From positions 66,843 to 130,842 of the forward strand of contig JAFYXV010000008.1 of NCBI GenBank assembly GCA_017557885.1: a stretch of 64,000 nt of DNA, given 5' to 3'. The position numbers and the translations under genes were made by a program. The notes under the pieces are model-generated. The model was given only the letters and a program-made list of their open reading frames with translations. It searched no databases and was not told where the DNA came from. The stretch is from a bacterium. GTDB lineage: Bacteria; Auribacterota; UBA3054. Below are positions 1,297 to 41,673 of this stretch, in pieces. The stretch's first letter is position 1. Every line of letters starts with the position of its first letter.

Positions 1297-2289
1297 ATGG
1301 GCAGAAAGAAACTTGAAAAGAGCAAGGCCAAGGATCCCGCGGCTCCCAAACGCAGATACGAGCGCCGCCAGAAGCAGTTCAAAGAACTTCCCTCTCCGGA
1401 GATCATTCCCATCAACCAGGAGATCATCAGCCTGACGTCCGACCCCGAGATGTATTTTCTCCCGATGGCCCAGGACGAGATCTTCCTCATCAATCCCTAC
1501 GCCTGCGGCGTCTCCAGCTGGCTGCCCAAAGCCAAGCTTCACCGCCGCAACTGCGCTTTCTTCTCCATGGAACTGGTTTTGGAAGGCGAAGGCGAATTGA
1601 CGGTGAACGGCAGCACCTATGCCCTGAAGCCCCACGACGTCTTTTTGCTGCATTTCAACGAAGAGCACACTTACCAGAACGTTGGCACGGGCCGTTGGAA
1701 AAAAGTTTGGATCGCTTTCCGTCACAGCCTTATGACTCCCGGCCTCACTCAGCTGGGCTTGGACATGATCTCAAAGATCACATTAAAGGACCAGGACTTC
1801 GAGCAGATCCGGCGCCTTTTCTTCGACGTTCTGGACGAAGTCAGGGACCGCGGCCGGGACTTCAGGATCGAGTCCTCCGCCACCTGCTACAAGATCTTCC
1901 ATCTCCTGGCCCGCTACGCCAAGGCCATCAGCTCCCAGAGGACCAACGTCGTCCCCGCCCAGATCCAGGCCGTGGTCTCCTATGTCGAGAAACACCTGAG
2001 GGAGCCCATTTCCATGGAAGACCTGGCCAACGTGGCCGGCTGCTGCCGCGTGCATCTCACCAGGCTCTTCAAAAAGCACATGGGCATCCACACCAGGGAC
2101 TGGCTCATCCAGCTTAGGATGCGCCATGCCTGCATGATGCTGAAGACCACCAACCTTCCGGTGCACATCATTGCCGAGGAAGTGGGATTCGACGATCCCT
2201 ACCACTTCAGCACGGCTTTCCGCCGCACTGTGGGACAGCCTCCCACCAAGTTCCGCAAGCAGTCCAAGGGAAGCGGGGACCAGGAATAA
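1297..2289 (+). CDS. AraC-family transcriptional regulator (cupin-type sensor + C-terminal AraC HTH)
   Basis: ATG preceded by AAGGAG; C-terminal region EDLANVAGCCRVHLTRLFKKHMG...DWLIQLRMRHACMMLKTTNLPVHIIAEEVGFDDPYHFSTAFRRTVGQPPTKFR is an AraC HTH; lysine-rich N-terminal extension. Confidence 0.8.
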   Translation: MGRKKLEKSKAKDPAAPKRRYERRQKQFKELPSPEIIPINQEIISLTSDPEMYFLPMAQDEIFLINPYACGVSSWLPKAKLHRRNCAFFSMELVLEGEGELTVNGSTYALKPHDVFLLHFNEEHTYQNVGTGRWKKVWIAFRHSLMTPGLTQLGLDMISKITLKDQDFEQIRRLFFDVLDEVRDRGRDFRIESSATCYKIFHLLARYAKAISSQRTNVVPAQIQAVVSYVEKHLREPISMEDLANVAGCCRVHLTRLFKKHMGIHTRDWLIQLRMRHACMMLKTTNLPVHIIAEEVGFDDPYHFSTAFRRTVGQPPTKFRKQSKGSGDQE

Positions 2290-2365: not shown

Positions 2366-2440
2366 GCCGCAGTAGCTCAATGGCAGAGTACCTGGCTGTT
2401 AACCAGGGTGTTGTTGGTTCGAGTCCATCCTGCGGCGCCA
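2366..2440 (+). tRNA. tRNA-Asn (anticodon GTT)
   Basis: Acceptor stem GCCGCAG/CTGCGGC, anticodon loop CTGTTAA, T-loop TTCGAGT, encoded CCA; 75 nt. Confidence 0.85.
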
Positions 2441-2591: not shown

Positions 2592-5489
2592 ATGAAGAAA
2601 CTTTTGACATTCCTGGCGCTGGCGCTAATTTCCCTGGCCGCGCAAGCCGAGACCGCAAAATTCACCTTTGAGGACAACTCCGGAAACATAGACGATCAGG
2701 ACGGCTGGACCGCCGCCGGAAACGCCGCGGTCGCAACCGACCTTAGCGTTTCCGTGACGAACGAGATCAAAGTAAGCGCCTGGCACGCATACGGCGACAA
2801 AGCCCTGGAGCTTGAAGGCGCCGCGACTATTTCGCGCCAAATTTCGTTCAGGGACGACTTAGAGCAAAGGATCGCTTTTGATTTTTACGCGACCTATCCG
2901 GAGGAAGACGCCAACAGATCCTTGGTCCTGAAGCTTGGCGGCGTTCCTCTCCTCAAGCTGGAGGCGGTCGATACCAACGTCATCTCCGCGGAAATTTTCG
3001 GCGGCTTTTTCGGCAATGATCCAGCCTGGCAGCCTGCCGAGGGCGTGCAGACGCTCTACCACCGCAAATGGCAGCACCTTGAGCTTCTGATTGATAAAGA
3101 TCATCTCCTTAAGCTGAAAGCCCCCAACAAGGACGCGGAGATGGCCGGTTTCGCTTTGAAAAGCCCGCTCTCAGCCGGCGAAACGACGCTTTCGATTGAA
3201 AGCGATTTTGAAAAGATCTATCTTGACAATCTGAGATTCACAGAAGAACCTGTCGCCCACAAGACTCTTCTTGAAAAAAATCCCAACGTTTCCCTGGGGC
3301 TCGGCGAAAGCTACGAGTGTTCTTTCGGAAGGGACTGCTCCTTGGGCGGCATGGAATTCAAATGCGCGCTCACGATCCCCCAGAATTGTCTTGGCTTCAT
3401 GAGCCTGAACGAACACACCCTGCCATTGGGCACCTTTTTGTCGCCCGGCGACAACGAGATCATAATCGGCGTTTTGAAAAACGGCCGCCTGATGAAGGCG
3501 ACCGTCAACGGAGAAGAGTTGGATTATGATCTCTCCTTTGACCTGCCTGAAACTATTAGCCTCAAGATCAGCAACCTTTCTCCGACTGCCGACATAAAAG
3601 TCAAAGGAGTCTTCGCCCAGAACAGCCTGCCTATTCTTTACAGCGAAGTCGCCTCCATCGATCTGTTGATGGTGGCCTATACCGGCGGCGGAAACAACAC
3701 TCCTCCCCAAAACTACACCAACATGTACTATCCGAAGGTCCAGGATTTTTATTACCGCAATTCCAACGCCCAGCTCCTTCTGAAGTACGATCCCGTTTAC
3801 CGCCACATCGTTCCCCCGGCGGAAACTTTCTTCCGCAATTATGAGAACGAATTCGGCGAGCAGGAATTAGGCGGCTACATCATGGCCAGGGATCTCAGGA
3901 AAACGCTGGGCATCTGGGATCAGGAATACGATATTTTCGTCTTCACCTGCGGCAACGGCTGGAACAGCTGGGGCGGCAACTGGGGTGGCGGCAGCTGGGG
4001 ATATACCGGCATGGGCAAGGTCATGTGCTCCCAAGTTGGCAACTACGGCGGCAGCGGCACGGGCTTCGTCACGGTCCACGAGGTCATGCACTCGGTGGAC
4101 CAGATGTACTCCTACAGCGGATACCATGAGTACTCAAGCTCGCACCCGGACGGCTGCAGCTACGGCTGGGCCGGCGGAGGCGACACCTGGTCCTGGTGCG
4201 GCACAGCCATGCGTCCCTTCACGAATTATTTCAAATTAAGGACTCCCTGGAAAAACACCTACGTTTACCGTGACAGCGACCGCGACGGCCTGGCCGACAA
4301 CGACTCCGTGCTGCCCATAGACGAAGTGAGGATGAGTTCCGACCAGACCGAGACCGACACCGACAAGGACGGACTTGACGATCTTCAGGAATACCTGGTC
4401 GGGCTTTATTATCCCAGCGACGCCAACGATCCCGACACTGACAAAGACGGGCTGAAGGACGGCGACGACCCCTACCCCATCATCGCTTACAACAAGAGCA
4501 TTCCCAGGCTCCTGAAAGAGCCCAGCATTAACGGTATCTTGGAAGACGACGACTGGACTTACTGGGGCTCCGGCACAGGCGACAGTGAGGATCCTGAATT
4601 CCAGGTCACAGCTTACGCCGGCTGGCGGGACGACGCCGTGTATTTCGCCTTCAAGACCAACAAGAAAAGTTCCTTCACGATCGAAATAGACGGCTCCGCC
4701 TGGTCAGGCCCCTGGCACGGCGGCGACTATTTCAAATTCAAAGCCCACAACCAGTATTACAACAGAATATACGCCGCTTCCAATGACGACAACAGCGTTC
4801 AGGACTGGACCTGCGGCAACGTTCCCGCCGGTTCCCGCTGCATCAAAAAGGACAATGAGCTGGGCGGCTTCAACGTTGAAGTGAAGATCCCCTGCAACCT
4901 GAGATCCATAAGAGGCTACACTTGCTGGCCCGGCGAAGAGGTCACCAACTGTTTCAAATGCGTCTCCGGAGGACAGCTGGGATTATTGGTAAGCTACGAG
5001 GGCATAGGCCTAGACAGAGTCGATATCAACGACTACCATCCCAGCCCCTGGGCCTCCTCCTTTGAAAGGATGGACTGGCATGTCTTCGACCTCGTGGAAG
5101 CCGACGAATCCTTCGCGCTCCTTTCCGCCAAACCCCAGAATGCTGAGCTTCACCTGGGCGAATCGGAACCCATCGATCTCAAGTACGTGAACTACGGCCA
5201 AGCCGGCAACGCTGAAGTAACCATAGAAGCTCCCGACTATTCCTCCTCCGCTTCCGTATACCTTGCGGGCGGCGGCGAGACCACCGAGAGCACGGTTAGC
5301 ATAGATATCCCCGCAAACGAGGAAGCCGCCGGCACGACCGACTTCAACGTCATAACGAAACTGAACGGTTCAGCCGTGACCAACACCTTCACCTGGAACG
5401 TGGTTCCGGAGCCCGCCGCCGCGGCGCTCCTGCTTCTCGGCCTTGCTCTTTTCAGAAGGAAAGCCGATGATCGCCGTCCGCTCCTTTGA
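2592..5489 (+). CDS. PEP-CTERM-anchored secreted protein with HExxH zinc-metallopeptidase motif and thrombospondin-type-3-like calcium-binding repeats
   Basis: Signal peptide MKKLLTFLALALISLAAQA (ATG 2592; longest-ORF GTG at 2583); HEVMHSVDQMYSYSGYHEY; DxDxDG repeats (DSDRDGLADND, DTDKDGLDD, DTDKDGLKDGDD); C-terminal VPEPAAAALLLLGLALFRRK = PEP-CTERM sorting signal. Confidence 0.7.
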   Translation: MKKLLTFLALALISLAAQAETAKFTFEDNSGNIDDQDGWTAAGNAAVATDLSVSVTNEIKVSAWHAYGDKALELEGAATISRQISFRDDLEQRIAFDFYATYPEEDANRSLVLKLGGVPLLKLEAVDTNVISAEIFGGFFGNDPAWQPAEGVQTLYHRKWQHLELLIDKDHLLKLKAPNKDAEMAGFALKSPLSAGETTLSIESDFEKIYLDNLRFTEEPVAHKTLLEKNPNVSLGLGESYECSFGRDCSLGGMEFKCALTIPQNCLGFMSLNEHTLPLGTFLSPGDNEIIIGVLKNGRLMKATVNGEELDYDLSFDLPETISLKISNLSPTADIKVKGVFAQNSLPILYSEVASIDLLMVAYTGGGNNTPPQNYTNMYYPKVQDFYYRNSNAQLLLKYDPVYRHIVPPAETFFRNYENEFGEQELGGYIMARDLRKTLGIWDQEYDIFVFTCGNGWNSWGGNWGGGSWGYTGMGKVMCSQVGNYGGSGTGFVTVHEVMHSVDQMYSYSGYHEYSSSHPDGCSYGWAGGGDTWSWCGTAMRPFTNYFKLRTPWKNTYVYRDSDRDGLADNDSVLPIDEVRMSSDQTETDTDKDGLDDLQEYLVGLYYPSDANDPDTDKDGLKDGDDPYPIIAYNKSIPRLLKEPSINGILEDDDWTYWGSGTGDSEDPEFQVTAYAGWRDDAVYFAFKTNKKSSFTIEIDGSAWSGPWHGGDYFKFKAHNQYYNRIYAASNDDNSVQDWTCGNVPAGSRCIKKDNELGGFNVEVKIPCNLRSIRGYTCWPGEEVTNCFKCVSGGQLGLLVSYEGIGLDRVDINDYHPSPWASSFERMDWHVFDLVEADESFALLSAKPQNAELHLGESEPIDLKYVNYGQAGNAEVTIEAPDYSSSASVYLAGGGETTESTVSIDIPANEEAAGTTDFNVITKLNGSAVTNTFTWNVVPEPAAAALLLLGLALFRRKADDRRPLL

Positions 5490-5517: not shown

Positions 5518-5559
5518 GACCGCCGCGCGCCTTTTCCAGGTGCGCGGCGGTCTGCTTTT
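5518..5559 (+). terminator. Putative intrinsic terminator for the PEP-CTERM gene
   Basis: Perfect 11-bp GC-rich stem GACCGCCGCGC / GCGCGGCGGTC with 13-nt loop followed by TGCTTTTCC, about 30 nt after the stop. Confidence 0.45.
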
Positions 5560-5770: not shown

Positions 5771-6412
5771 TTATTCGGTCACAGGGTTGACCACGTTCAC
5801 GTTCTTGGCGGTGTAAACCAGGCCAGGAGCAACAACGATGGTGCCGCCAGCCTGTTTGGCCTTGAAGGCGACCTTCTTGGGGGTCGTGATGCCAGTGCCT
5901 TCGACTTCGCCGAACTGACCAGCCTGGATGCTCTTGAAGACGCCTTTGAAGGTGCCTTCGACCTTCGTGGTGGCCTTGACGGCCGTGCCCTTGGCGAAGT
6001 TACCAGCATCGACGCTGCCGGTGATGTTGGCGACCTGAGCGGACTTCAAGCCAGCGGCGACGACGGTGCCGACGGTGATGCCTTTCAGCTTAAGAGCGAC
6101 GCCGTTGAAGCCAGCTTCCACGCCGTTGATCGTGCCGGTGACTTTGCCGCCTTTCTGGGCGATGGCTTTACCAGCAGCAGCCTTGACAACGATGTTGCCG
6201 TTGGCGGTGGTGAACTGGACCTGGCCTTTGTCACCCAGCTGGGTGCCGAAGTCAACGATGGTGGCGCCGGTTTCATCGACGGTGACGACCGGGGTCACTT
6301 CGGGCTTGGAGAAGCCTTCCAGACCTTCGCAGAAGACCTGCGGGGTCTTGGCAGCGTAAGCGATAGCAGCGATGACGAGTAAAGAAGCAACGATGATTTT
6401 AGTAGCTTTCAT
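5771..6412 (-). CDS. Small secreted Gly/Thr/Val/Lys/Ala-rich repetitive protein of unknown function
   Basis: Start chosen at internal ATG (MKATKIIVASLLVIAAIAYA signal peptide) preceded by GGAGA; the longest ORF to 6601 adds an implausible non-hydrophobic N-terminus; mature part is degenerate short repeats (KGTAVKATTKVEGTFKG, KGGKVTGTINGVEAG, LKLKGITVGTVVAAG). Confidence 0.6.
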   Translation of the reverse strand: MKATKIIVASLLVIAAIAYAAKTPQVFCEGLEGFSKPEVTPVVTVDETGATIVDFGTQLGDKGQVQFTTANGNIVVKAAAGKAIAQKGGKVTGTINGVEAGFNGVALKLKGITVGTVVAAGLKSAQVANITGSVDAGNFAKGTAVKATTKVEGTFKGVFKSIQAGQFGEVEGTGITTPKKVAFKAKQAGGTIVVAPGLVYTAKNVNVVNPVTE

Positions 6413-6434
6413 TTTATGTCTCCATAAATGTGGT

Positions 6435-6465
6435 ATTTTAAACAATGTCTCCCAAACGGAATCAA
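6435..6465 (-). promoter_or_regulatory. Putative sigma70-like promoter of the small secreted repetitive gene
   Basis: Minus-strand TTGATT - 18/19 nt - TAAAAT about 25 nt upstream of the RBS/ATG. Confidence 0.3.
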
Positions 6466-6698
6466 CAAAATTGTGACTCCCCTCCGGTGGGACGTTTCCT
6501 CGCCCGAAACTTTTCGGACTAAAAATAAAGGCTCGTTTCCCTGTATCGAAGGCCTTAACGCTCGAAGCTGTTATCCGGCCTTTCCCTCTACATTGTTTCA
6601 ATTATCGTAAGGAATTATAACAGAATGCCTGCCGGAAATCAAGTCCTTCTCCGGCCGGCGGGCTGGCGTTCCTGCAAAAACCGCTGCTTTCAGCCGTT

Positions 6699-9600
6699 TT
6701 ACATAACCTCGTTCAGCTCGTTCTCCCGAACGTGCTGGCGTTCCTTCTCCTCCAGGAGCAGCGCCGCCCCGTCCTTTTTCCGGCGTATCGCCCAGTTCAG
6801 GGGATCGCGTTTCCAATTTTCGGAATATTCTCCGTCTATCCTGCGGAAAGAAACGTCCGTGAACTCCACCGCTCCGGGGGAGGCGACGTTCTCGCTTTCC
6901 AGGCAGAAGAAAGAAATATTTTCTGAGCTGTTGGTTATGATCAGGTGCTCCTGGGTCCATTGGCCGCAGAGAGTCCGCCATTTCTTCACTTGGGAATCCG
7001 TATCGCCTCTTTGCCTGAACCGCATGGAAACTTCCGTGGGCGCTTCCCTGCCCTCCGGGATCCTGGCGTAGGCGGAGGCGGCGTAAACGCCGGGCGGCAG
7101 CATCATCCTGACCGAGGCGCCGGCCTTGCCGCCGGGTTCGCCCTGCTCGGAGAGTTTGAAGCCGGGTGTCAAAAGGAAGGTGGCGGGAAGCTTCTCTTCC
7201 TTTTCGGATTCCGCCCGCCATTCTCCCAGCCCTTTGATGAAGTAGCCGTTCATCAGCTGCTCGGCTCCCTCGAAAACTATAACGGCATGCCTGGGCAAAG
7301 AGTTGGTTATGATGCCGCCCATTTCCTTTTGTGCGCTTTCGGAAGCGGGCAGGTCGCCCCTGGCGTCCATCGATTTCTTAAAGGTATCCCACTCTTTGAC
7401 GAAGATCGCGTTTTCCGGACGATTGAGATAGATCTTGTCGAAGGTCTCGGTAAAAGCGCGGAAGTTCTCGTCCGCGAAACCGTAATTCGCTTTGAATTGG
7501 CTTGGGGCTATGAAGGGGATCAGGCCGCCGGCTTTGTAATAGACGTCGAAGAGGAGCCAGGGATCCGGCGTTTCGTTCTTGAGCATTTCAAAATAAGCCC
7601 TGGCCCCCTGGCGGTTTCCGGTCTTGACGCAGAAGAAAAACCGGCCTATGCAGTTGCGGCTTTTTTTCAGTTCGTCTTCCGAAGCGCCTTCCAATCCTTT
7701 TACGATCCATTTGCGATAGGCTTTCCGGATGCTTATTACCGAATAGTCGTCCTGGGAGAGAGGCGGCAGATAAAGCAGCTGCGGGCTTATTTCATAGAGG
7801 GCATCCTCGCTCCAGGCGGAGCGCACGCATTCCGCCAGAGCCAGCGTCATGGCCGCCAGCTGCTGGGGGGAGTGGACTTTCTCCACGGATCTCAAAAGCG
7901 CCGTGGTGTCGTTGACAGCCATGACCGAGCAAATGTCGCTTATGGAGTTGAAATCCGGCCTGCCTATGGTGGAAATGAACCACCAGGCGTAGCCTGTCTC
8001 GCCCAGGAATCTCTCGTCGGCGGAAAGGTAATCGTTGTTTTCCAAAAACACCCATTTGCGGGAAAGTTTCCTTCTCTGCTCATAGCGCAGCACGTCGTAG
8101 AGAGAGGACAATCCCAGGCTTCCCTCTTCGCTTTTTCCCATGCCGGGAAGAACTATGAAGTCTCCCGAACGGAACCCGTTCTCCTGGCTGTCCAGGACCT
8201 GGCAGACTTTTTCCATGACGTCCGAAAGATCGCTGCCCTCCAGCTCGTAGGAGGAACGCCTGTAGCCGAAGAGGAAGGCGACCAAGGGCAGCACGATGAG
8301 CATCGCCGCCAGCGGGCGCAGGCGCGGATTGCCCAGGAAGCGGCTGAGAAGTCTGGCGCAGAGCGTCGCGAAACGGCCGATGAGGATCCCTCCCTGCCCT
8401 ATCGCCGCGGCCAGGAAGACCGTGGAAGCATAGCCTGCGGTCCCGGGATTCAGCTCGCTGACCCGCAGGTAGAAATAGAATAAAACGGTGCTGAGGATGC
8501 CGTAGAGCCCGCAGCGTTTAAGGTCCGTCAGCCACATTAGGAGAATGCCCAGAACGACCGACAGGCCGCAGAGAAATTCCGTGTTGTTGAGCCAGTGGGT
8601 AACCAGGAAAGGATTGGGCGAGGAGGCGATCCAGAAGTTTCCGTTGACTTCAAATTTGGTCGGGTCAAGAGTGCCGCAGAAGAAATAGATCGACGCGATG
8701 GGCAGCAAAAGCGGCAGAAGCCTTGAAACAACAAGGACGGCGAAACTCGCGAAGCTCTTCTGCCTGGCGTTCCAAATTATTCCTATGATCTGCGTCAAAA
8801 AGATCAGGATAAGGCACAGGAACGCAAAGGACGGCATGGCCCCCGGGAAGCCCGCCAGAAGGGAGATCAGAAGGCAGCGGAAAAGATAATACTTGTAGCC
8901 GCTCTGGTAGCTCTTCAGCGAGGCGCAGTAAGAGGTCAGTATCAAAAGCAGCAAAGTCATCTGCAGAACGAAAAGCCCGCCATCCAGCTGGAGTATATTT
9001 CTCCCGGCCAGGAAGAAGACAAGGCCAATGGTCACCGCGGTGGAGGCGGTCAGGATGCCGACCAATCCCTGGATCAGCGCCAAAACGATCAGGCAGCAGG
9101 CGGAGACCACAAGGGACATAAGGGAGTACTGGGCCGGCGTCACCAGAAGCGCGTAGTTCAGCTTCGCGCAGATCCTGGCGTAGGCTATCTGAAGCGTGGT
9201 GAAAGCGGCGCCGCTGCGGTCCGCGGCTTCGCTCATAAAGACGTCACGGATATTCTCAAACATGTGGGCCTGACGGAACACATGCCCCTGGTCCATGGAG
9301 AAATTGCGGTAAACGTCCTGGGAAACTCTCCAAAGGCAAAAGACTGCCGCCGCTATCACCAGCGCGCCGATCAGCTTCGCGCCGATCTTTACGTAGAGGT
9401 CGTTGCCGCCTCTTAAAAAGCCCTGGCTGAAAACGCCGCGGCTTTCGCTCTTCCTGGGCAGCGAAGAAACGTAGGCGTCCTCCCGGTCGTTGTAGTAAGC
9501 GTCGCCTTCGTTTTTCTTTTGGAAAACGGAGGCAGCCCAATCGGCAAGATCCATTATCCTGAAAAAGGCGAGGAAGGCAAAAAACTTGTCGGAAAGCGAA

Positions 9601-10268
9601 AAGCGCGCGCCCTCTGCCTCCTCTTCCTCCTGGGAGGAGAAAAGGAAAGCGTAAAGGGAGGCGAACCTGTCCTGGCAGTAATCCCGGGTCATCATGAGGA
9701 TCGTGTGGAAAGGACGCGCTTCGTTGTCCTGGACTTCCGAAGAAGCCTCTTCCCCGCCGTTCTCCGCAGCCGCGGCCTCTGTTTCGTCTTCAGCTTTCTT
9801 TTCCGTGCCTTTGAAAACGTACTTCTTGCCCAGAACGTAATTCAAAATTATAACTATGGGCTGGGTGATGTATTTGGCCGCCACGCCTGGCTGGAGCACG
9901 ATAAAGGAGAAACTGCAGCCGCCCAGGACAAAAGCCAGCTGGAGATCCTGAGGCAGAAGGACCGACAGAAGTTTCGTCAGGGCGACGTCCACCACCCCGG
10001 AAAGCCCCCTGACCAAAGCGAAGCGCCAGATCTCCATGCCCAGCTCCTTGTTGTCCTTGCAGTGGGAAGCGAAGACCCAAAGCTTGTTGGAAACGTAGGC
10101 GAAGATCTTGGCGCAAACGACGGAGATGACGCCGGAAGTGGTGACGCCCACCCCCATCCGGTACAGGATGTGGTAAACGCCAACGTTGACCACGGTGGTC
10201 AGGACGCCGCAGATCAGATAAGCTATGATCTCTTTGAGGTTCTTTTTCTTTTTTTGCGCGCCAGCCAT
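6699..10268 (-). CDS. Large polytopic membrane protein with N-terminal GtrA-like domain fused to a multi-TM domain and a C-terminal soluble domain (putative polyprenyl-phosphate-sugar-dependent glycosyltransferase or polysaccharide biosynthesis protein)
   Basis: 1189 aa; N-terminus MAGAQKKKKNLKEIIAYLICGVLTTVVNVGVYHILYRMG...AKIFAYVSNKLWVF matches the GtrA family pattern; then acidic linker, more than 12 predicted TM helices and a roughly 450-aa hydrophilic C-terminal region. Confidence 0.65.
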   Translation of the reverse strand: MAGAQKKKKNLKEIIAYLICGVLTTVVNVGVYHILYRMGVGVTTSGVISVVCAKIFAYVSNKLWVFASHCKDNKELGMEIWRFALVRGLSGVVDVALTKLLSVLLPQDLQLAFVLGGCSFSFIVLQPGVAAKYITQPIVIILNYVLGKKYVFKGTEKKAEDETEAAAAENGGEEASSEVQDNEARPFHTILMMTRDYCQDRFASLYAFLFSSQEEEEAEGARFSLSDKFFAFLAFFRIMDLADWAASVFQKKNEGDAYYNDREDAYVSSLPRKSESRGVFSQGFLRGGNDLYVKIGAKLIGALVIAAAVFCLWRVSQDVYRNFSMDQGHVFRQAHMFENIRDVFMSEAADRSGAAFTTLQIAYARICAKLNYALLVTPAQYSLMSLVVSACCLIVLALIQGLVGILTASTAVTIGLVFFLAGRNILQLDGGLFVLQMTLLLLILTSYCASLKSYQSGYKYYLFRCLLISLLAGFPGAMPSFAFLCLILIFLTQIIGIIWNARQKSFASFAVLVVSRLLPLLLPIASIYFFCGTLDPTKFEVNGNFWIASSPNPFLVTHWLNNTEFLCGLSVVLGILLMWLTDLKRCGLYGILSTVLFYFYLRVSELNPGTAGYASTVFLAAAIGQGGILIGRFATLCARLLSRFLGNPRLRPLAAMLIVLPLVAFLFGYRRSSYELEGSDLSDVMEKVCQVLDSQENGFRSGDFIVLPGMGKSEEGSLGLSSLYDVLRYEQRRKLSRKWVFLENNDYLSADERFLGETGYAWWFISTIGRPDFNSISDICSVMAVNDTTALLRSVEKVHSPQQLAAMTLALAECVRSAWSEDALYEISPQLLYLPPLSQDDYSVISIRKAYRKWIVKGLEGASEDELKKSRNCIGRFFFCVKTGNRQGARAYFEMLKNETPDPWLLFDVYYKAGGLIPFIAPSQFKANYGFADENFRAFTETFDKIYLNRPENAIFVKEWDTFKKSMDARGDLPASESAQKEMGGIITNSLPRHAVIVFEGAEQLMNGYFIKGLGEWRAESEKEEKLPATFLLTPGFKLSEQGEPGGKAGASVRMMLPPGVYAASAYARIPEGREAPTEVSMRFRQRGDTDSQVKKWRTLCGQWTQEHLIITNSSENISFFCLESENVASPGAVEFTDVSFRRIDGEYSENWKRDPLNWAIRRKKDGAALLLEEKERQHVRENELNEVM

Positions 10269-10563: not shown

Positions 10564-11457
10564 ATGTTTTCATTCCTGAACCGCGACCTGGACAACTACT
10601 CCCCTCCCAAGGAACGGGAGATCATGCCGTTGGGCAAGCTTCTCGCCTACGCCCAGCCTCACATCGTCCCCTATGTGGTCTACGGCGTCTGCACCGCGGT
10701 CCTGGGCAAGATAATCAACCCCTACCAGGCTTACATCTTCGCTTTCCTCCTGACGCTTCTGGTCATCGGGATCTATTATGTCAAGGGCGATTATCCGGAG
10801 CTCACCTTTAAGGGCCTGAAGTTCCGGGACTGGCTCCTGGCCTTCGCCGTAGGCGTGGTGGGCATCGTCCTTTGGATCCTTCCCTATCACTTCGCCTGGA
10901 AAGTAATGTTCGCCCGCATCCCCATTCTGGGCAACGACAACATCTACCTTTCCCTGACCTACGGCTTCCAGTTCGCGGAGGACGCTTTCCACAAAGCCTC
11001 AGGAGCGCTCGTGATGCTGCCGACGGAATATCCCGAAGCCGCTTATTCCAAGGAAGTCCTGGCGGACGGCGCCGCCAAGCTCAAGGATTTCTTCTCCCTT
11101 TCCTGCGACGCGAATTTCCTGGCCGGCTTCCTGACCTTCGTAAGGATCGCCGGCGCCTCGCTGATGGTTCCGCTTTTCGAGGAGCTTTTCAGCCGCTCCG
11201 CCCTGACCCGTTTCTGCGTGGCTGAAAAATACAAGGAAGTGCCGGTCGGCTACTACACCAAGAAGAGTTTCCTGATCGCCATCGGCTTCTTCATCCTTTC
11301 CCACCCCTGGTGGTTCGTGGCCCTGATCTGGGGCGGCCTGATCTTCTTCCTCTATTACTACAAAAAAAGCCTTCCCCTCTGCATTTTCGCCCACGGCGTG
11401 TCCAATCTTCTCCTGGGCCTTTATGTCATTGCCACCGGCAACTATTACCTTTGGTAA
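10564..11457 (+). CDS. CPBP-family (CAAX protease-like) intramembrane metalloprotease
   Basis: Multi-TM protein with the CPBP motifs EELFSRSALTRF (EExxxR) and FAHGVSNLL (FxxxH...N). Confidence 0.7.
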   Translation: MFSFLNRDLDNYSPPKEREIMPLGKLLAYAQPHIVPYVVYGVCTAVLGKIINPYQAYIFAFLLTLLVIGIYYVKGDYPELTFKGLKFRDWLLAFAVGVVGIVLWILPYHFAWKVMFARIPILGNDNIYLSLTYGFQFAEDAFHKASGALVMLPTEYPEAAYSKEVLADGAAKLKDFFSLSCDANFLAGFLTFVRIAGASLMVPLFEELFSRSALTRFCVAEKYKEVPVGYYTKKSFLIAIGFFILSHPWWFVALIWGGLIFFLYYYKKSLPLCIFAHGVSNLLLGLYVIATGNYYLW

Positions 11458-19991: not shown

Positions 19992-20032
19992 AGACAAAAG
20001 CAGCGATGGATTTCCCATCGCTGCTTTTGTCT
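19992..20032. terminator. Bidirectional terminator hairpin (18-bp perfect stem)
   Basis: AGACAAAAGCAGCGATGG-loop-CCATCGCTGCTTTTGTCT between convergent genes ending at 19972 (+) and 20053 (-). Confidence 0.6.
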
Positions 20033-20052
20033 TCAAACAGTAATAAACCTGC

Positions 20053-20262
20053 TTACTTGTTTTCTTCCTCTTTGCGTTTGGCAAGCAAAGCTTTCAAATC
20101 ATCAAGAGTCTTGTACTCATGATGCTTTTCCTTTTGGTATTCCTTAACGGCTTCCTTGGCCCAAATCTCATCCTGATAGTCTTCGGCAGCATCAGCATCT
20201 CCGCAGGGCATCACAACGACCTTGGATTCCAAATCATCTGTTTTAATCTTGGCCTTTCTCAT
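20053..20262 (-). CDS. Small acidic hypothetical protein, possible cognate partner/antitoxin of the upstream toxin
   Basis: 69 aa; ATG overlaps the toxin stop (ATGA); no recognisable HTH or RHH motif. Confidence 0.4.
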   Translation of the reverse strand: MRKAKIKTDDLESKVVVMPCGDADAAEDYQDEIWAKEAVKEYQKEKHHEYKTLDDLKALLAKRKEEENK

Positions 20263-20552
20263 TTCAACCTCCTGTATATTTCCTTTCTGTTATCGATCTT
20301 GATCACTTCGACTGTTATTATATCATCAATGATATTATACACGCACCTGTATTGCCTAAATCTGAAACGATAATAAGAACTGTTTTTTAATTTTTTTGCA
20401 AATGGAATCTGAGCATATGGATTTCTCAATACGATCTCCAATTTGTTATAAAACAATCTTATATCGGATGTGGGCAATGTCTCCAAAAACTCAAACGCTT
20501 TTTTATCAATTTTCAGTTTATAAATATTATCACGAAAATTTTTAAAAAGCAA
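20259..20552 (-). CDS. RelE/ParE-family type II toxin (mRNA interferase-like)
   Basis: C-terminal YRFRFRQYRCVYNIIDDIITVEVIKIDNRKEIY matches the RelE/ParE pattern; N-terminal region YKLKIDKKAFEFLETLP...NPY; apparent TTG start. Confidence 0.65.
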   Translation of the reverse strand: MLFKNFRDNIYKLKIDKKAFEFLETLPTSDIRLFYNKLEIVLRNPYAQIPFAKKLKNSSYYRFRFRQYRCVYNIIDDIITVEVIKIDNRKEIYRRLK

Positions 20553-20876
20553 TTAAAAGAATCATAAACAACGATACAATTCTTCTTGAATCTCTGTGAA
20601 AGTTAGATTTGATGCTGCGCATTTCGTTTTACCTCCTGTGTCCATGCGTTAATTTGATTTTTCACATGTTAGCAGATAAAATTCAATGTACAAAGCATTT
20701 TTGAAAAAACTATTATTTACAATAGTCAAAACAATAAAAATTTAATTCGTATAGTCGAATAAGCGTTTTAGCGCTAGCAACAAAAATAGCCGTGACCTTC
20801 TCGCTAACAAAGGTCGCGTTTTAAAAAGATAAATTGCCTTCAGTCCGCGCGGCCGGCTATGATCTTAGGGCCGGTC

Positions 20877-20905
20877 TTGCTTTTAAAATCGGGTTTAGGT
20901 ATAAT
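20877..20905 (+). promoter_or_regulatory. Putative sigma70-type promoter for rpmE
   Basis: TTGCTT - 17 nt - TATAAT about 45 nt upstream of the rpmE ATG. Confidence 0.4.
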
Positions 20906-20948
20906 ATTCTCTACCTTAAAAAATAACTATAACTGATTAGGTTCAAGT

Positions 20949-21152
20949 ATGAAAGAAAAGATCCATCCTAACTACGAACAGACGACCATCACCTGCGCCT
21001 GCGGCCACGTTTTCAAAGTTGGCACCACGGTAAAGGATATGCACATCGGCATTTGCTCCGAATGTCACCCCTTCTTCACCGGTAAGCAGAAATTTGTCGA
21101 CACGGCAGGCCGCGTCGAGAAGTTCAACCGTCGTTACGGCAAAAAAGACTGA
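20949..21152 (+). CDS. rpmE: 50S ribosomal protein L31
   Basis: [64 protein letters not shown] with Cys zinc ribbon. Confidence 0.95.
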
Positions 21153-21254
21153 TAAGCCTTCTTTGCCTTTCAGCGAAGCTCATGACGCGCGTCATTACCA
21201 AGACGAGCCGTGGGCTTCGTTTTTTTTGCCCTCTTTCCCCTTCTCAGATGATCC

Positions 21255-22331
21255 ATGAAAGTTTTTGATATCACGGCCCAGATAGCCGAGATGAAAAAGC
21301 TCGAGGACGAGCTCTCCAAAGCGGAAACAGTCGCTGATCCCGCGCTTTTCCGCAACCTGACCCGCAGGCACAAACACCTGAGCGAGGTCGTGGACACCGG
21401 AAGCCGGCTGGCGAAAGCCCAGGCGGCGGTGGCGGACTGCGAAAAGATCATCGGCGAGAATTCCGATCACGAACTTGTGGAACTGGCCAAGGAGGAAATG
21501 GCGGAAGCGCAGAAACAGTCCGAAGAGCTGGAAAAGGCCATGATGGTCCTTTTGCTTCCCAAGGACCCTTACGACGACGCCAACACCATCATGGAAATAA
21601 GGGCCGGAACCGGCGGCGAGGAAGCGGCGTTGTTCGCCTCCGAGCTTTTCAGAATGTATTCCCGCTATGCGGAAAGACAAGGCTGGAAGATCGAGACGAT
21701 GAACACCTCCCCCGCCGCGGCCGGAGGCTTGAAGGAAATCATCTTCAGCATCCAGGGCGACGCCGTATTTTCGCATATGAAGTACGAAGCCGGCGTGCAC
21801 AGAGTCCAGCGCGTGCCGGAAACCGAGACCCAGGGCAGGATCCACACTTCCGCGGCCTCGGTGGTCGTTCTGCCGGAGCAGGAGGAAGTGACCGTGGACA
21901 TCAAGCCGGAGGATCTCAGGATCGACATCTACCGCTCCACCGGCGCCGGCGGCCAGCACGTCAACACCACCGACTCCGCCATCAGGATCACGCACCTGCC
22001 CACCGGGCTGGTGGTGACCTGCCAGGACGAAAGAAGCCAGTATAAGAACAAAGCCAAAGCCATGCGCGTATTGCAGGCCAGGCTCTTGGAAAAAGAACGC
22101 CAGGAAGCCGCCAAGGAAAGGTCCGACCAGAGAAAGACCATGGTGGGCAGCGGCGACCGCAGCGACAAAAATAGGACTTACAACTTCCCCCAGAACCGCG
22201 TGACAGACCATCGCATCGGGCTGACCGTGCATGCTCTGGGCGAAATAATGAACGGCGACCTCGACCGTCTAATCTTGCCACTTATCGAGCATGACACCGA
22301 GGAAATGCTCAAAGCATGCACTTCTCTATGA
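21255..22331 (+). CDS. prfA: Peptide chain release factor 1
   Basis: GGQ motif in [28 protein letters not shown]; RF1-type recognition region [19 protein letters not shown]. Confidence 0.95.
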
Positions 22332-27156: not shown

Positions 27157-28947
27157 ATGTCGAATGATCTTCCCCATTGGCAATTGAATGAGCTTTACCC
27201 TTCCCTGGATTCCCCGGAACTCAGAGCGGATCTTATCAAGATCAAAAACAACGTCGCCTCTTTGAAGGAATATGAATTTCCTCCCTGCCCGGATAGCGTC
27301 GATAAACTGGCGGATGAACTCGCCAAAATGATCAAGCGGGAAGAAGAATTGATAGAACCTGTGGAAGCGATCGGCGTTTACTGCCATTCCATCATAAGCA
27401 CGGATTCCTACAACGGCGAAGCCGTCAAAATAGATTCTTCCTTGGACGGCGCCAAGATCGCCCTTAGCCTTCTGCGGGTCCGCTATCTCAAATGGCTGGA
27501 CAATATCCCTCAAAAGCTGTGGAACGAGCTTTGGAGTTCCCCCGCTTCCGAAAAGATCAAGGACTTCCGTTTCGCCCTGCAGGAGGAACGCGACAACGCC
27601 GCTCATCTTCTGAGCGAAAAGGAAGAAGAACTGGCCGCCAAACTGGAGCAGTGCGGGACGCAAGCCTGGGCCAAGATGCAAGGCCTTATCACTTCCAGGG
27701 CCACCGCCGACTTCACCGTTGACGGCGAAACGAAAAGAATGCCACTGACCGCCATCAGAGCCTACCAGACCAACAGCGACCCCGAGGTTAGATTAAGAGC
27801 TCAGAAGACCGAAGAAGCCGCCTGGAAGACTATAGAGGACCAGATCGCCGCCTGCCTGAACGGCGTCAAAGGCAGCGCCAACACCATGGCGAAAGCCAGA
27901 GGCTACTCCTCCGCCCTTGAGCAGAGCCTGAGGATCTCCCGCCTTGACGACGAGACCTTCGCCGCCCTCTGGGACGCAATGCAGCGATCCTTCCCGCTTT
28001 TCAGGCGCTACTTCAAGAGCAAAGCCAAGAAGCTCGGGCTTCCGAAACTGCGCTGGTGCGACCTGGACGCCCCCGTGGGCAGCAGCACCAAACGTTATTC
28101 CTTTGAAGACTGCCAAAGCTTCCTGCTCAGACATTTCGCAAATTTCACACCGGAAATGCATGACCTGGCCAAAAGAGCTTTCGACAACAACTGGATCGAC
28201 GCCGAGCCCAGGGACGGCAAACGCGGCGGCGCTTTCTGCATGCCTATAAGGAAACTTGAAGAATCCCGCGTCATGGCCAACTACGGCTACAATTTCGATT
28301 CCGTCAACTGCCTGGCCCACGAACTGGGACATGCCTTCCACAACTACTGCATGAAAGGCCTTCCCGCCAAGCAGCGCAAGTGCCCAATGACGCTGGCCGA
28401 GACCGCCTCCATCATGAACGAGGTCGTGGTCTCCAGCTCCGCCATCAAAGAAGCCGAAAGTAGAGGCGAGGAACTCTACATCCTGGAAAACATGCTGACC
28501 AGCGCCAGCGGCGTCATCGTGGACATCGCCTCCCGCTTCCTCTTCGAAAAAGAAGTCATGAAGCGCCGGGAAGAAAACGAGCTTACGGCCAAGGAACTCT
28601 GCGCCATCATGGAAGAGGCCCAGAATGCCACCTTCGGCGACGCCCTGGACGAGAACTGCCGCGGGCCCTATATGTGGACCTGGAAGCCGCACTATTACTT
28701 CTCAAGCTTCAACTTCTACAACTACCCCTACGCCTTCGGCCAGCTTTTCGCCCTGGCGCTCTATTCGCTTTACAAAAAGGAAGGACAGACCTTCATTCCC
28801 AAGTACATGGGCTTCCTGCGCTCCGCAGGACAAGATTCGCCCAGAGGCCTGGCCGCGCGTTTTGGGTATAATATAACCAAGAAAGAATTTTGGGACAATT
28901 CCCTTTCAGTTATTGAAGGTTGGATAAACAGATACGAAGAACTTTGA
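27157..28947 (+). CDS. pepF: Oligoendopeptidase F-like M3-family metallopeptidase
   Basis: 596 aa with HELGHAFHNYC zinc-binding motif and M3B-like length. Confidence 0.75.
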   Translation: MSNDLPHWQLNELYPSLDSPELRADLIKIKNNVASLKEYEFPPCPDSVDKLADELAKMIKREEELIEPVEAIGVYCHSIISTDSYNGEAVKIDSSLDGAKIALSLLRVRYLKWLDNIPQKLWNELWSSPASEKIKDFRFALQEERDNAAHLLSEKEEELAAKLEQCGTQAWAKMQGLITSRATADFTVDGETKRMPLTAIRAYQTNSDPEVRLRAQKTEEAAWKTIEDQIAACLNGVKGSANTMAKARGYSSALEQSLRISRLDDETFAALWDAMQRSFPLFRRYFKSKAKKLGLPKLRWCDLDAPVGSSTKRYSFEDCQSFLLRHFANFTPEMHDLAKRAFDNNWIDAEPRDGKRGGAFCMPIRKLEESRVMANYGYNFDSVNCLAHELGHAFHNYCMKGLPAKQRKCPMTLAETASIMNEVVVSSSAIKEAESRGEELYILENMLTSASGVIVDIASRFLFEKEVMKRREENELTAKELCAIMEEAQNATFGDALDENCRGPYMWTWKPHYYFSSFNFYNYPYAFGQLFALALYSLYKKEGQTFIPKYMGFLRSAGQDSPRGLAARFGYNITKKEFWDNSLSVIEGWINRYEEL

Positions 28948-30032: not shown

Positions 30033-30830
30033 TTATTCAGTTTTCGTCTTTTTCTCAGCAGCGGCTTCCTTGTTGGCGGCCCTCCAGTCCGCTTCCAGCT
30101 CCTTCGCCGACTTTCCGGTCGCTTTCTTCCAGAACTTGCCGTCGTCGAAAGAATGATCGCGGAGCGCGGCGTTGAGTTTCTTCATCGTCCCGGGGAAACG
30201 GCTCTCTACGAAACCGAAGAAATGCGCAGTGACGCGGTAGGAGTCGTTGTAGTGGTATTTATCGGGGGCCTTGAGCACAAAATCGCAGCCTTTGGACTCA
30301 GGTTCGAAAAGGACCCACCTGATGTAGTCCGCGTAGCCCTCGCTCGCCCATTCGGGGCAGTTCTTCTCGTTGCACCCCTCCGTCCAATAGTTCTGCAAAA
30401 CGTGGGTGAGTTCGTGTATGGTAGAACCAAGCGCCTCGCCATCCAGATTCTCCCTGAACCAATCGACGCGAAGGCAGACCTGATTCTCACTGGGCAAAGC
30501 CCAGGCCGGCGCACCGTCGGCGGATTTTAGTTTTACGACAACGAACTGGAAGTTGATTTTTTTCGGCGGCTTCCAGCCGTCGGACGCCATGGTGTCGGTC
30601 AGCTTCACGACCCACTCTTTAACGGCGGGTGCGAACTTTTCCTTCGTCCACTTGTTCAGGTCCGGGGCGTTTGATGTGTCGAATACGAGTTTCGAAACGC
30701 TTGTCGCGACTTCAAATTTGTTGTTATCGCTCTTTTCCTTGCCGCCCTCAGCCGCATAAAGGGAAACCGTCGGCAGCATTAAAAAGCAAGCCATCGTTAA
30801 CATTAACCAGCTTTTGTCGTAGTTCTTCAT
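30033..30830 (-). CDS. Secreted BSP-family-like (basic secretory protein / peptidase of plants and bacteria) putative metallopeptidase
   Basis: Signal peptide; HELTHVLQNYW...EGYADYIRW resembles the BSP-family HExxH pattern. Confidence 0.5.
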   Translation of the reverse strand: MKNYDKSWLMLTMACFLMLPTVSLYAAEGGKEKSDNNKFEVATSVSKLVFDTSNAPDLNKWTKEKFAPAVKEWVVKLTDTMASDGWKPPKKINFQFVVVKLKSADGAPAWALPSENQVCLRVDWFRENLDGEALGSTIHELTHVLQNYWTEGCNEKNCPEWASEGYADYIRWVLFEPESKGCDFVLKAPDKYHYNDSYRVTAHFFGFVESRFPGTMKKLNAALRDHSFDDGKFWKKATGKSAKELEADWRAANKEAAAEKKTKTE

Positions 30831-37099: not shown

Positions 37100-38686
37100 A
37101 TGGCAGAGAAAAAAGAACACTGGGGATCCTCTTTCGGATTCATAATGGCCATGGCCGGTTCCGCCGTGGGACTTGGCAATATCTGGCGCTTTTCCTTCAT
37201 AACGGGCCAGAACGGCGGCAGCGCTTTTTTGATCGTTTACCTTGCCTGCGTGATCTTCGTAGGCATTCCCATCATGCTCTGCGAACTGACCATGGGCAGG
37301 GCTTCCCAATCGAACCCTGTCAGGACCTTCCACAAGCTTGGCGCGGAAAAATCGAAACTGTCCTACGGATTAGGCGTCATAGCGCTTCTGATGGCCGTGG
37401 GTTTCCTGAGTTTCGGGCATTTCTTCTACGCCGCGCTGCTTTCCATTGTCGGCGTATCTTTCATCTACTTCGGCTGGGTGACGCTGGGCGTCATCTACGG
37501 CGCCGTCACTCCCCTTTTCATTCTGGCCTATTACGGCGTGGTGGGCGGCTGGACGCTCATTTACGTCTGGAAATCGCTTTTAGGGCAGCTTAACGTGCAG
37601 ACCGTAGAGGAAGCCTCCGCCATCATGACCCCCATCATTATGGCGCCCAAGGGCGCCTGGACGGCCCCGCTCCTGTCCACTCTGCTCTTCGTTCTCGCCA
37701 CCGCCGCCATCATCTGGGTTGGCGTGCAGAAAGGCATCGAGCGCTTCTCGAAGATCTTCATGCCCGTTTTGTTTCTTCTTCTCATCGTGCTAATTTTCCG
37801 CGGGCTGACGCTTCCCAACGCTTCCAAGGGCTTGAAATTCCTTTTCGTGCCTGATTTTTCACAGCTTTCCGGAAGCTCGGTTTTGGCCGCTTTGGGACAC
37901 GCCTTCTATTCCCTTTCCCTGGGCATGGGCATTACCATCACCTACGGCGCCTACCTAAAATCTGACAACAATATTCCAAGATCCACCGTCACGGTCGCCA
38001 TGCTCGACACTCTTGTTTCCGTCATGGCAGGATTGGCGATCTTCCCGGTGGTCTTCGCCATGGGCTTCGCTCCTGACAGCGGGCCGTCTCTCATTTTCAA
38101 AGTCCTGCCGCTGGCTTTCCAGAAACTGCCGCTTTCCGCCCTCTGGAACGTCATCTTCTTCGTCGCGGTCCTTATCGCCGCTCTGACCAGCGCAGTGAGC
38201 CTCATGGAAGGCCCTGTCTGCCTCATGGTGGAAGAGCTGAAGTGGAAGCGCAGCAAAGTCCTTTTGATCCTTGTCCCCTGCCTTTGCGTCGTCTCCTCCG
38301 TGATCGCGCTCTCCGCCGGCGACTGGAGCAATTTCCCGCAGCTCGGAGAATTCATCCAGAAAACTTTCATGACCTCCAAGGGCAGCCTCTTCGACGCCTT
38401 CGACTGCGGCGCCTGCCAGTGGCTCATCCCCATCGCCTGCTTCCTGACGCTCCTTTACGCCAGCTGGGTCTGGGGGCCGCACTGCGCCGTAAAAGAAATG
38501 CGCACAGGCTCCACCGGCGCCATGGACACGAACCTCTGGCACCTTGTCTCCGGCGTCTATGATAAGAACGACACCGGCATTCCCTCTCCTCTGGCGCCCT
38601 GCGTGCTGTGGGCTTTCTTCGTGCGCTGGATCTCACCCATATTGGTCCTCCTGGCTTTCCTGGACGGACTGGGAGTTTTCAGGTGA
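37100..38686 (+). CDS. Sodium-dependent transporter, neurotransmitter:sodium symporter (NSS/SNF) family
   Basis: N-terminal GFIMAMAGSAVGLGNIWRFSFITGQNGGSAF signature; 12 TM. Confidence 0.85.
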   Translation: MAEKKEHWGSSFGFIMAMAGSAVGLGNIWRFSFITGQNGGSAFLIVYLACVIFVGIPIMLCELTMGRASQSNPVRTFHKLGAEKSKLSYGLGVIALLMAVGFLSFGHFFYAALLSIVGVSFIYFGWVTLGVIYGAVTPLFILAYYGVVGGWTLIYVWKSLLGQLNVQTVEEASAIMTPIIMAPKGAWTAPLLSTLLFVLATAAIIWVGVQKGIERFSKIFMPVLFLLLIVLIFRGLTLPNASKGLKFLFVPDFSQLSGSSVLAALGHAFYSLSLGMGITITYGAYLKSDNNIPRSTVTVAMLDTLVSVMAGLAIFPVVFAMGFAPDSGPSLIFKVLPLAFQKLPLSALWNVIFFVAVLIAALTSAVSLMEGPVCLMVEELKWKRSKVLLILVPCLCVVSSVIALSAGDWSNFPQLGEFIQKTFMTSKGSLFDAFDCGACQWLIPIACFLTLLYASWVWGPHCAVKEMRTGSTGAMDTNLWHLVSGVYDKNDTGIPSPLAPCVLWAFFVRWISPILVLLAFLDGLGVFR

Positions 38687-40197: not shown

Positions 40198-40321
40198 ATA
40201 TCTGCTCGCAAATTATTTAATTTTCAATCCGTTCAATATAATTTCCTAGTAAATTGTTTACCTTTCAATTTTTCTTTTTTTATGTTATGATATAAGCGTC
40301 AACAAAATCGAGGAGGCTTTT

Positions 40322-41644
40322 ATGCAGAACGAACAATCTCAAGATCAAAAAGGCAGGACCCCCGTCGTCGCCAAAGTTATCCTTTTGTTCGGCATACTCG
40401 TCGTGGGATTGGGTTTTGTATATTTTCTCTCCGACGTGTGGAGAGAGCTCTTTGAGAAAAAAAGTTTCTTTGTCGCCTGCAGCGTGATCTTTTATGCCGC
40501 CGGCGGTTTTCTGCATTATAAGAACAGGTCGAAAATTCTGAGGGAGATCTTCTACCTGATCGCCGCAGGCTTTACCGTCTCGGGCTTCTGGCTGTTTTTT
40601 CCGGAGCTGAAATATATGCCGGAGGAATACAAAGCCTTCTACGCCCTGGTCTTCATTTTCGCCCTGGGCTTTTTGCTGGATTCCCTCTCCCACTATCTTT
40701 TTGCCGCAGCGATCTACGTGTACGCGTATTTTTACGCTGCTGACGAAGCCCGGAACATCCAGAGCGTTTTTTGCGTCGCAAGTTTCTTCGCCATGAACCT
40801 GGTTTTCCTGGGCGCTTTCCTCTGGCGCCGCAGGGTCTCCCTGCTGCTGCTTTTTCTGATCGCTCTGTTTTCGAACAATTTTTATTTCTCCCCTTACCTT
40901 CCCGTAAAGTTGGTTTATCTGCCAATAGTAATCCTGACCTTCTGGGCGGTAGCCGCCTGGCCTTCCATAAGGAACGACAAAGCCGGTCTTGGCAAAGCGG
41001 CCATGATGCTTGCGGTGATCGTAACATCCTGCGTTTACGCCATGCTCTTAAGCGACGATTTCTGGCATGAGGGTTTTCAGTTCCTGGAGACAGATGATAT
41101 TTATGACAGCAATATCAAAAACGTCATAAGCTGCTTTTTCTTCGGTGCGGAAACGGTGTTTGTCCTGGTCGCTTATCTGAAATTTTATCTTGACCGCCCG
41201 GAAAAGCAGGAGCTTTTCTTCTATTCCTCCGGCATTCTTTTCGCCCTGCTTCCCTTCGTCTTTTATCCCTTCTGCCGTCTGCATGTGTCTTACAGGGTCG
41301 AGGGCTGCAGCGAACCGGTGCATGAAATATGGAACAATTGCAATAAAGTCGCGAAAGTTTTCTTCAACGTCTTCTGCGCGGCGATGGCTTACTTCATTTT
41401 CATAGGCTTCAGATTGAAGAGCCTGTCCATGAAGATCTTCGTCATTCCCTTCGCCATCGTCACAGGCGTTGCGCATATCTGCTTCACCTACTGGGGCCGC
41501 CACACTCCCGACGGCTTGTGGCTTATCTACGCCGGGCTGGTCATAGTTTACTCGGTGGGATGTTATTTCTTTTGCAGGAAATTGGAAAGCCGTGAAAAAA
41601 CTCCCGCTGCTGACGCTGACAGTAATAAAACAGACATGGCGTAA
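40322..41644 (+). CDS. Polytopic membrane protein of unknown function (paralog A; possibly DUF2157-like)
   Basis: GAGGAGG RBS; at least 10 TM helices; N-terminal region similar to the next gene. Confidence 0.55.
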   Translation: MQNEQSQDQKGRTPVVAKVILLFGILVVGLGFVYFLSDVWRELFEKKSFFVACSVIFYAAGGFLHYKNRSKILREIFYLIAAGFTVSGFWLFFPELKYMPEEYKAFYALVFIFALGFLLDSLSHYLFAAAIYVYAYFYAADEARNIQSVFCVASFFAMNLVFLGAFLWRRRVSLLLLFLIALFSNNFYFSPYLPVKLVYLPIVILTFWAVAAWPSIRNDKAGLGKAAMMLAVIVTSCVYAMLLSDDFWHEGFQFLETDDIYDSNIKNVISCFFFGAETVFVLVAYLKFYLDRPEKQELFFYSSGILFALLPFVFYPFCRLHVSYRVEGCSEPVHEIWNNCNKVAKVFFNVFCAAMAYFIFIGFRLKSLSMKIFVIPFAIVTGVAHICFTYWGRHTPDGLWLIYAGLVIVYSVGCYFFCRKLESREKTPAADADSNKTDMA

Positions 41645-41673
41645 TTATTTTCTTTAATCATCTTTTCAAGGAG

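Follow-up and report, generated by a model that had tools for sequence, protein, structure and literature searches.

A predicted secreted zinc metallopeptidase, probably the founding member of an undescribed zincin family, in a ruminant-gut Kiritimatiellae bacterium

The locus considered here raises the question of whether a short zinc-peptidase motif in an unannotated, apparently secreted protein marks a genuine active site and, if so, to what kind of enzyme that site belongs. The stretch analysed, called the window below, comprises 64,000 nucleotides of contig JAFYXV010000008.1 (positions 66,843 to 130,842), and the gene in question opens on the forward strand at an ATG at position 2592, giving a protein of 965 residues; an alternative GTG start lies at 2583, and the ATG is preferred because its MKK coincides with the N-terminus of the orthologues in the alignment. 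An earlier note on this DNA had read the product as a PEP-CTERM surface protease carrying an HExxH motif with a downstream glutamate, perhaps of the M60-like, M6 or M66 families. We think it reasonably likely, from comparison of sequences and a model of the fold, that the protein is a zinc metallopeptidase of an undescribed family, secreted and probably located at the cell surface or associated with exopolysaccharide; it would probably be the founding member of that zincin family. The protease reading of the earlier note thus appears broadly right, and its family guesses and its glutamate ligand appear wrong.

The motif, HEVMH at residues 496-500, occurs once in the protein, against a chance expectation of 0.017 from the protein's own composition. 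A search of 5.8 billion proteins returned a close family of only 16 relatives, at 49-99% identity and none of them annotated, and H496, E497 and H500 are invariant in all 16, so that the motif pointed out earlier holds among its orthologues. S501 and D503 are likewise invariant there, within a block reading VHExMHSxDxM...SG..EY.SSH.D. The two histidines and the glutamate are also invariant in 19 remote relatives that share only ~20-30% identity over the core domain. HExxH is a short pattern and taken alone would be weak evidence, and one could therefore suppose that it arose by chance in a non-enzymatic protein. Given the low expected count, the invariance in family and superfamily alike and the location on the helix where a protease-like fold would carry it, this explanation is refuted by the conservation test and seems to us scarcely credible. 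Judged by its conservation, the HExxH is a real, non-chance motif.

The family that carries this motif is small. An exhaustive profile search with the core (residues 335-560) among 1.84 billion representative proteins returned only 21 proteins at E<=1e-3, namely the 19 remote relatives, P0008, which represents the close family, and P0019, a fragment of a close relative (P numbers are our labels for relatives). All 21 are unnamed, and each remote relative whose record was consulted is an uncharacterised metagenome protein in a cluster of one to three sequences. A further search with the superfamily alignment A3, which holds 23 sequences with remote relatives included, returned only three proteins and did not deepen the family. 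Nine positions are invariant in all 23 sequences of this alignment: F386, R389, N390 and S391, then H496, E497, H500 and D503 in and just after the motif, and R541.

Which residue might complete the zinc site is constrained by the same alignment. The downstream glutamate of the earlier note, E513, is present and is invariant in the close family, but it is not kept across the superfamily, where the position is E in 16 of the 23 sequences, D in three, and Q, G, K and S in one each. We therefore rejected E513 as the third zinc ligand, and on this evidence a downstream Glu probably does not serve in that role. D503 was also judged unlikely, since it lies on the same helix only three residues past H500, and we know of no zincin whose third ligand is placed in that way. 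At position 518, beyond the conserved S509-G510 helix stop, His and Asp exchange with one another, a pattern typical of a metal ligand, and we propose this residue as the third ligand.

Sequence searches place the core in no family that we could name. Neither the query nor the profiles A2 and A3 gave a Pfam, NCBIfam or PDB sequence match to the core, even at E<=10. Membership of the M60-like, M6 or M66 glycoproteases finds no footing here: there are no matches to Peptidase_M60, Peptidase_M6 or Peptidase_M66 in the query or any of the 23 members at E<=10, nor do the 23 sequences share, a short way past HExxH, a Glu or Asp third ligand of the kind those families have. Although the suggestion has HExxH and a Glu at 513 of the close family to recommend it, we regard an enzyme of one of these types as very improbable. 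Nine sub-threshold matches are scattered among the members, and six of these are to zinc peptidase families (Reprolysin_5, Reprolysin_3, M43, M90, M91 and M64).

The fold is more telling. An AlphaFold2 model of the full-length protein built from the 16 orthologues gave a predicted local distance difference test score (pLDDT) of only ~25 in the core, and a model of the core with the remote relatives added reached a pLDDT of 79.4 and a predicted template modelling score of 0.80. The order of elements in this core model is b1, aA, b2, aB, b3, b4, b5 and a long helix aC (residues 487-508), which bears the HExxH with both its histidines and its glutamate conserved in homologues, as expected of a zincin; the predicted five-stranded sheet with one antiparallel edge strand, together with the active-site helix, is that of the metzincin fold. 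The top fold matches of the core model are the catalytic domains of ADAM and ADAMTS proteins and snake-venom metalloproteinases, with the catalytically dead ADAM22 among them.

These fold matches would suit a divergent ordinary member of the adamalysin/reprolysin family (M12B), or of another metzincin family, that has escaped the hidden Markov models (HMMs), and sub-threshold Reprolysin_5 and Reprolysin_3 matches in two to three remote members lean the same way. The best Reprolysin match among the 23 members, to Reprolysin_5, has an E value of 9e-4 in two members and lies below the cutoff; none of Reprolysin_2-5 reaches its gathering score, and the query itself has no match at E<=10. More importantly, the metzincin signature HExxHxxGxxH/D is absent: the third position after the second His is Asp in 23/23 sequences and not Gly, and the only conserved His or Asp stands 18 residues past that His. 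Nor does the alignment show a conserved Met-turn downstream; position 540 is M in 8, L in 13, F in 1 and A in 1, and falls in a helix. Alignment of A3 by hhalign with the window's own reprolysin domain gave a probability of 0.9%, which is poor negative evidence because the template was a single sequence. Set beside the M12B domains of ADAM8 (4dd8), ADAMTS-5 (6yjm) and atrolysin C (1dth), the protein shows 9-14% identity and no significant HMM or hhalign match, it reads HExxHxxD...SG...[H/D] where the adamalysins read HExxHxxGxxHD, and neither a cysteine-switch prodomain nor a disintegrin domain was detected in it. A further difference is that its active-site helix extends 8 residues past the second His, to a conserved Ser-Gly. 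An undetected ordinary metzincin is thus, in our judgement, decidedly unlikely, and the core, as modelled, is adamalysin-like in fold yet outside the sequence definition of the metzincins.

Comparison with metzincins that have a non-standard third ligand or glycan-binding domains leads to no closer relative. No sequence-level relationship was seen to M6 InhA2 (4yu5), the M64 IgA proteases (9qa6, 9qdh, 4df9), OgpA (6z2o), Amuc_1438 (8df2) or CpaA (6o38), the nearest approach being an M64 match in one member at E 0.32, with none to M6; the accessory module also differs, consisting in the present protein of thrombospondin-type-3-like (TSP3) repeats and a domain resembling carbohydrate-binding module family 9 (CBM9).

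This module accompanies the core with some regularity. The calcium-binding-type DxDxDG repeats that the earlier note described number three (DSDRDG at 561, DTDKDG at 589 and DTDKDG at 615) and are invariant in the 16 orthologues. An HMM of residues 556-640 finds this segment immediately behind the core in 18 of 19 remote relatives (at E 1e-13..1e-34 in 17 of them, and weakly, at 2.5e-3, in P0028), the sole relative without a match being P0031, a 279-residue protein that ends just past the core. The Pfam model TSP3_bac (cutoff 25) scores 16.6-24.5 bits at the homologous position in P0018, P0021, P0027 and P0030 and is not reported for the query, whose repeats weakly match the TSP3-repeat OmpA protein 5wtl (E 0.04). 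Further along, an HMM of residues 636-840 matches 10 relatives (E 1e-4..1e-38), in regions that include the above-cutoff Pfam CBM9_1 regions of P0020, P0021 and P0022, and Foldseek with the full-length model finds the true CBM9 7nwn; the query itself has no direct Pfam CBM9_1 match.

The other beta-rich domains, whose presence the model bears out, travel less well. The N-terminal lectin-like domain is shared outside the close family with P0017 alone, and the HMM of the immunoglobulin-like (Ig-like) stalk has no matches beyond the close family. For the beta-sandwiches other than the CBM9-like one, Foldseek on the full-length model returns jelly rolls of lectin type, among them the lectin-like domains of clostridial toxin Hc, the L-type lectin Emp47p, CBM22 and galectin, with query ranges not reported. 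On these alignments the core, TSP3 repeats and CBM9-like domain are one module kept across the superfamily, to which particular lineages have added the N-terminal sandwiches and the Ig-like stalk. Export and sorting signals in the relatives fit their lineage, with PEP-CTERM in P0017 and type IX secretion system (T9SS) tails in P0033-P0036; an extracellular enzyme would fit such lineage-matched signals. Where the module occurs elsewhere (P0018, P0033-P0036) its companions are a T9SS Por_Secre_tail with CBM60 or GEVED, FG-GAP/DUF11, and GH43_C2/DUF1349, and P0018 has a C-terminal hydrophobic segment with a basic tail and a DUF7743 match.

The domain composition also invites a non-proteolytic reading, in which the protein is a surface adhesin or lectin with a relic zincin-like domain, or else an enzyme that hydrolyses some bond other than a peptide bond, perhaps within exopolysaccharide or material of the cell wall. 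Of its six globular domains, five are of beta-sandwich, lectin, CBM or Ig-like type, the dead ADAM22 stands among the top fold matches, and we can name no metzincin counterpart for R541 or for the invariant RNS motif. The protein moreover changes more quickly than the products of adjacent genes, a behaviour shared by surface adhesins: at locus L009 the AraC regulator is 96% identical, the CPBP protein 95%, the DegT aminotransferase 91%, a GtrA-domain protein 79% and the present protein 75%. This divergence is concentrated in the outer (N-terminal and Ig-like) beta-sandwiches, the pattern that a surface-exposed protein would show. Six metagenome-assembled genomes (MAGs) of the RGIG series each contain a pair of paralogues, of which the class A copy is 75-85% identical to the query and the class B copy 51-54%, and identity between the classes is 73% in the core, 71% in TSP3, 56% in the CBM9-like domain, 48% and 25% in the first and second N-terminal sandwiches and 44% in the Ig-like domain. 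The core is therefore the slowest-evolving part of the protein (~91% identity within one class), which speaks against a relic, as does the retention of H, E and H in 35/35 sequences down to ~20% identity. Dead zincins normally lose HExxH. Weighing these points, we consider an adhesin with a relic domain, or a non-peptide hydrolase, unlikely.

Returning to the zinc metallopeptidase, we can sketch how it might work. H496, H500 and H518 (His or Asp in every relative) would hold the zinc ion, with E497 as the general base activating the zinc-bound water. D503 might be a second-shell residue orienting a His ligand; in zincins of the neprilysin type, the Asp of HExxHxxD does so. A nearly invariant [W/F/Y]-G-G strand at residues 464-466 would pair, as the upper rim, with the backbone of the substrate, and R541 might contact the substrate or transition state. 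The roles of H518, D503, this strand and R541 are inferred. The TSP3 repeats presumably bind calcium and so fix the CBM9-like domain beside the catalytic cleft, and because core, TSP3 and CBM9-like domain occur jointly in the relatives of sufficient length, they probably form one working unit. The CBM9-like and lectin-like domains might then direct the protease to glycosylated targets, such as glycoproteins or proteins enclosed in polysaccharide. An exosortase, whose gene would lie elsewhere in the genome, would act on the C-terminal tail once the protein had been exported, and the adjacent AraC-type regulator may control expression.

A bolder and more tentative proposal, to which we would give somewhat less than even weight, joins these elements into one claim. 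The family would be new, with an adamalysin-type scaffold in which HExxHxxD...SG...[H/D] and the invariant RNS and Arg replace HExxHxxGxxH and the Met-turn, with an obligate unit of three TSP3 repeats and a CBM9-like domain, acting as a glycan-guided protease and delivered by sorting tails (PEP-CTERM, T9SS) that vary by lineage. Under the same tentative claim, its targets in the rumen might be plant cell-wall glycoproteins, salivary mucins or the surface layers of other microbes.

The C-terminus itself reads VVPEPAAAALLLLGLALFRRKADDRRPLL and follows the PEP-CTERM pattern, its stretch VVPEPAAAALLLLGLALFRRK combining [V]PEP with a transmembrane helix and then a basic cluster. P939 is invariant and E940 and P941 are kept in >=90% of orthologues. 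The word 'canonical', which the earlier note applied to this signal, is slightly generous: the VPEP, hydrophobic and basic elements are conserved, but the scores of the short HMMs fall narrowly below their cutoffs (16.5 against 20.7 bits for PF07589, 14.7 against 16 for TIGR02595). Like described PEP-CTERM/exosortase cargo (TIGR02595, PF07589; Haft et al. 2006, PMC1569441), the protein combines VPEP with a hydrophobic helix and a basic cluster and is one of several such proteins in its genome; it differs in these sub-cutoff scores, and no exosortase was found among the open reading frames (ORFs) of >=200 residues scanned in the 64 kb window.

A motif scan agrees with the earlier count of three PEP-CTERM-tailed proteins in the window, the other two being encoded at 47732-52825 (-) and 52951-54441 (+). 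The former, of 1,697 residues, has a Reprolysin-type domain with the canonical HEWGHNMGCNH and a VPEP tail, and ~1,300 residues past its catalytic domain are without a Pfam match. It resembles the present protein in its genome of origin, its VPEP-type tail and its zincin catalytic domain, but it is recognisably of Reprolysin type, and no sequence relationship between the two could be detected. The latter, of 496 residues, matches the Lamin Tail Domain twice and likewise ends in a VPEP tail, and its gene is transcribed divergently from that of the giant metzincin. A grouping of PEP-CTERM proteases into an operon or island was rejected, since these two genes lie ~42 kb away amid housekeeping genes.

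Literature on PEP-CTERM with metalloprotease and HExxH, on CBM9 with TSP3 and metzincin, and on Kiritimatiellae with PEP-CTERM yielded nothing relevant. If active, the enzyme would add one more family to the zincin clan and would represent an adamalysin-like scaffold with a different third-ligand arrangement, bearing on evolution between metzincin and non-metzincin zinc sites. With its protease core fixed to TSP3 and a CBM9-like domain, it would introduce a new accessory architecture for glycan targeting, and it would give a first entry to function in rumen Kiritimatiellae, a gut group that is common although uncultured, and to the roles of their PEP-CTERM surface proteins. The family is rare (21 representative clusters), and no known principle is overturned.

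Table 1. Features of the gene, its predicted product and the adjoining upstream locus (aa, residue numbers of the product).
Feature	Position	Strand	Basis
AraC-family regulator (cupin sensor and helix-turn-helix)	1297..2289	+	syntenic with the gene in 7/7 class-A loci
tRNA-Asn(GTT), between AraC gene and metallopeptidase gene	2366..2440	+	kept in 7/7 class-A loci (L004, L005, L006, L008, L009, L010, L017)
Whole gene, secreted multidomain protein, 965 aa	2592..5489	+	ORF, hairpins, 16 orthologues
Putative signal peptide MKKLLTFLALALISLAAQA, probable cleavage before ET	2592..2648	+	reading of the sequence; helix 2-20 in model
N-terminal lectin-like jelly-roll domain, aa 22-222, variable	2655..3257	+	AlphaFold2 pLDDT 65-90
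Second beta-sandwich, aa 223-340, most variable domain	3258..3611	+	AlphaFold2 model, identities
Conserved core, aa 341-556, predicted zincin catalytic domain, adamalysin-like topology	3612..4259	+	without Pfam or NCBIfam model coverage
F-Y-Y-R-N-S motif, aa 386-391, C-terminal end of helix A	3747..3764	+	F386, R389, N390, S391 invariant 23/23
H496-E497-V-M-H500-S-V-D503, predicted zinc-binding/catalytic motif HExxHxxD	4077..4100	+	named residues 23/23; within helix aa 487-508
H518, proposed third metal ligand, after S509-G510	4143..4145	+	His 11/23, Asp 12/23; putative role
R541, end of C-terminal helix, candidate substrate/transition-state contact	4212..4214	+	invariant 23/23; putative role
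Three thrombospondin-type-3-like putative calcium-binding repeats	4260..4496	+	motifs, HMM of aa 556-640
CBM9-like beta-sandwich, aa 636-840	4497..5111	+	sub-region HMM, Foldseek
Ig-like beta-sandwich stalk, aa 841-937, variable	5112..5402	+	AlphaFold2 pLDDT 70-85
PEP-CTERM-like sorting tail: VPEP, hydrophobic helix, RRK	5403..5489	+	sub-threshold HMMs, orthologue conservation, motif scan

As to the host, the phosphoglycerate kinase of the window shows 85-87% identity to proteins attributed to Kiritimatiellae MAGs, and the 14 genome loci of the family all lie in ruminant gut MAGs (yak, sheep, goat, buffalo) or in UBP3_UBA3054; from these identities and occurrences we take the host to be a ruminant-gut Kiritimatiellae bacterium. 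The order DegT aminotransferase, AraC regulator, tRNA-Asn and metallopeptidase gene recurs at all seven class A loci, and class B genes are without it; at locus L001 a class B gene adjoins genes with FGE-sulfatase domains and a Na+/H+ antiporter. The tRNA gene has a promoter-like site upstream (2316-2344), and terminator-like hairpins follow both the tRNA (2448-2481) and the stop codon of the metallopeptidase gene (5518-5552), so that the latter looks monocistronic. Co-transcription with the AraC gene was rejected because the tRNA gene and the first of these hairpins lie between them, and on this arrangement the AraC gene is at most a possible, candidate regulator.

Immediately downstream, on the opposite strand, lies an ORF of 276 residues (5771-6601) that is rich in G, K, T, V and A and has no Pfam match; its identity of 98.5% in L008 and 80% in L009 marks it as a real conserved gene. 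It is followed by 6699-10268 (-), which encodes 1,189 residues and retains its synteny in both L008 and L009. The N-terminus of this product is a GtrA/DPMS transmembrane domain, and the remaining ~1,000 residues have many predicted membrane helices, a soluble C-terminal part and no family match. A CPBP/Rce1-like intramembrane protease is encoded at 10564-11457 (+). Other peptidase-type genes of the window are an M3 oligopeptidase F at 27157-28947 (+) and a BSP-family peptidase (PF04450) at 30033-30830 (-), and none of the three is an exosortase. For ORFs 41674-43020 and 46287-47609(-) Pfam gives nothing, or at most a faint match to DUF2157. Two sodium:neurotransmitter symporter (SNF) genes stand in tandem at 37100-38686 and 38608-40197 (+) with an overlap of ~80 nt, the first matching its model in two pieces. 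Local GC content dips to 0.455-0.476 at about 20000-22000, 40000-42000 and 46000-48000, compared with ~0.55 elsewhere.

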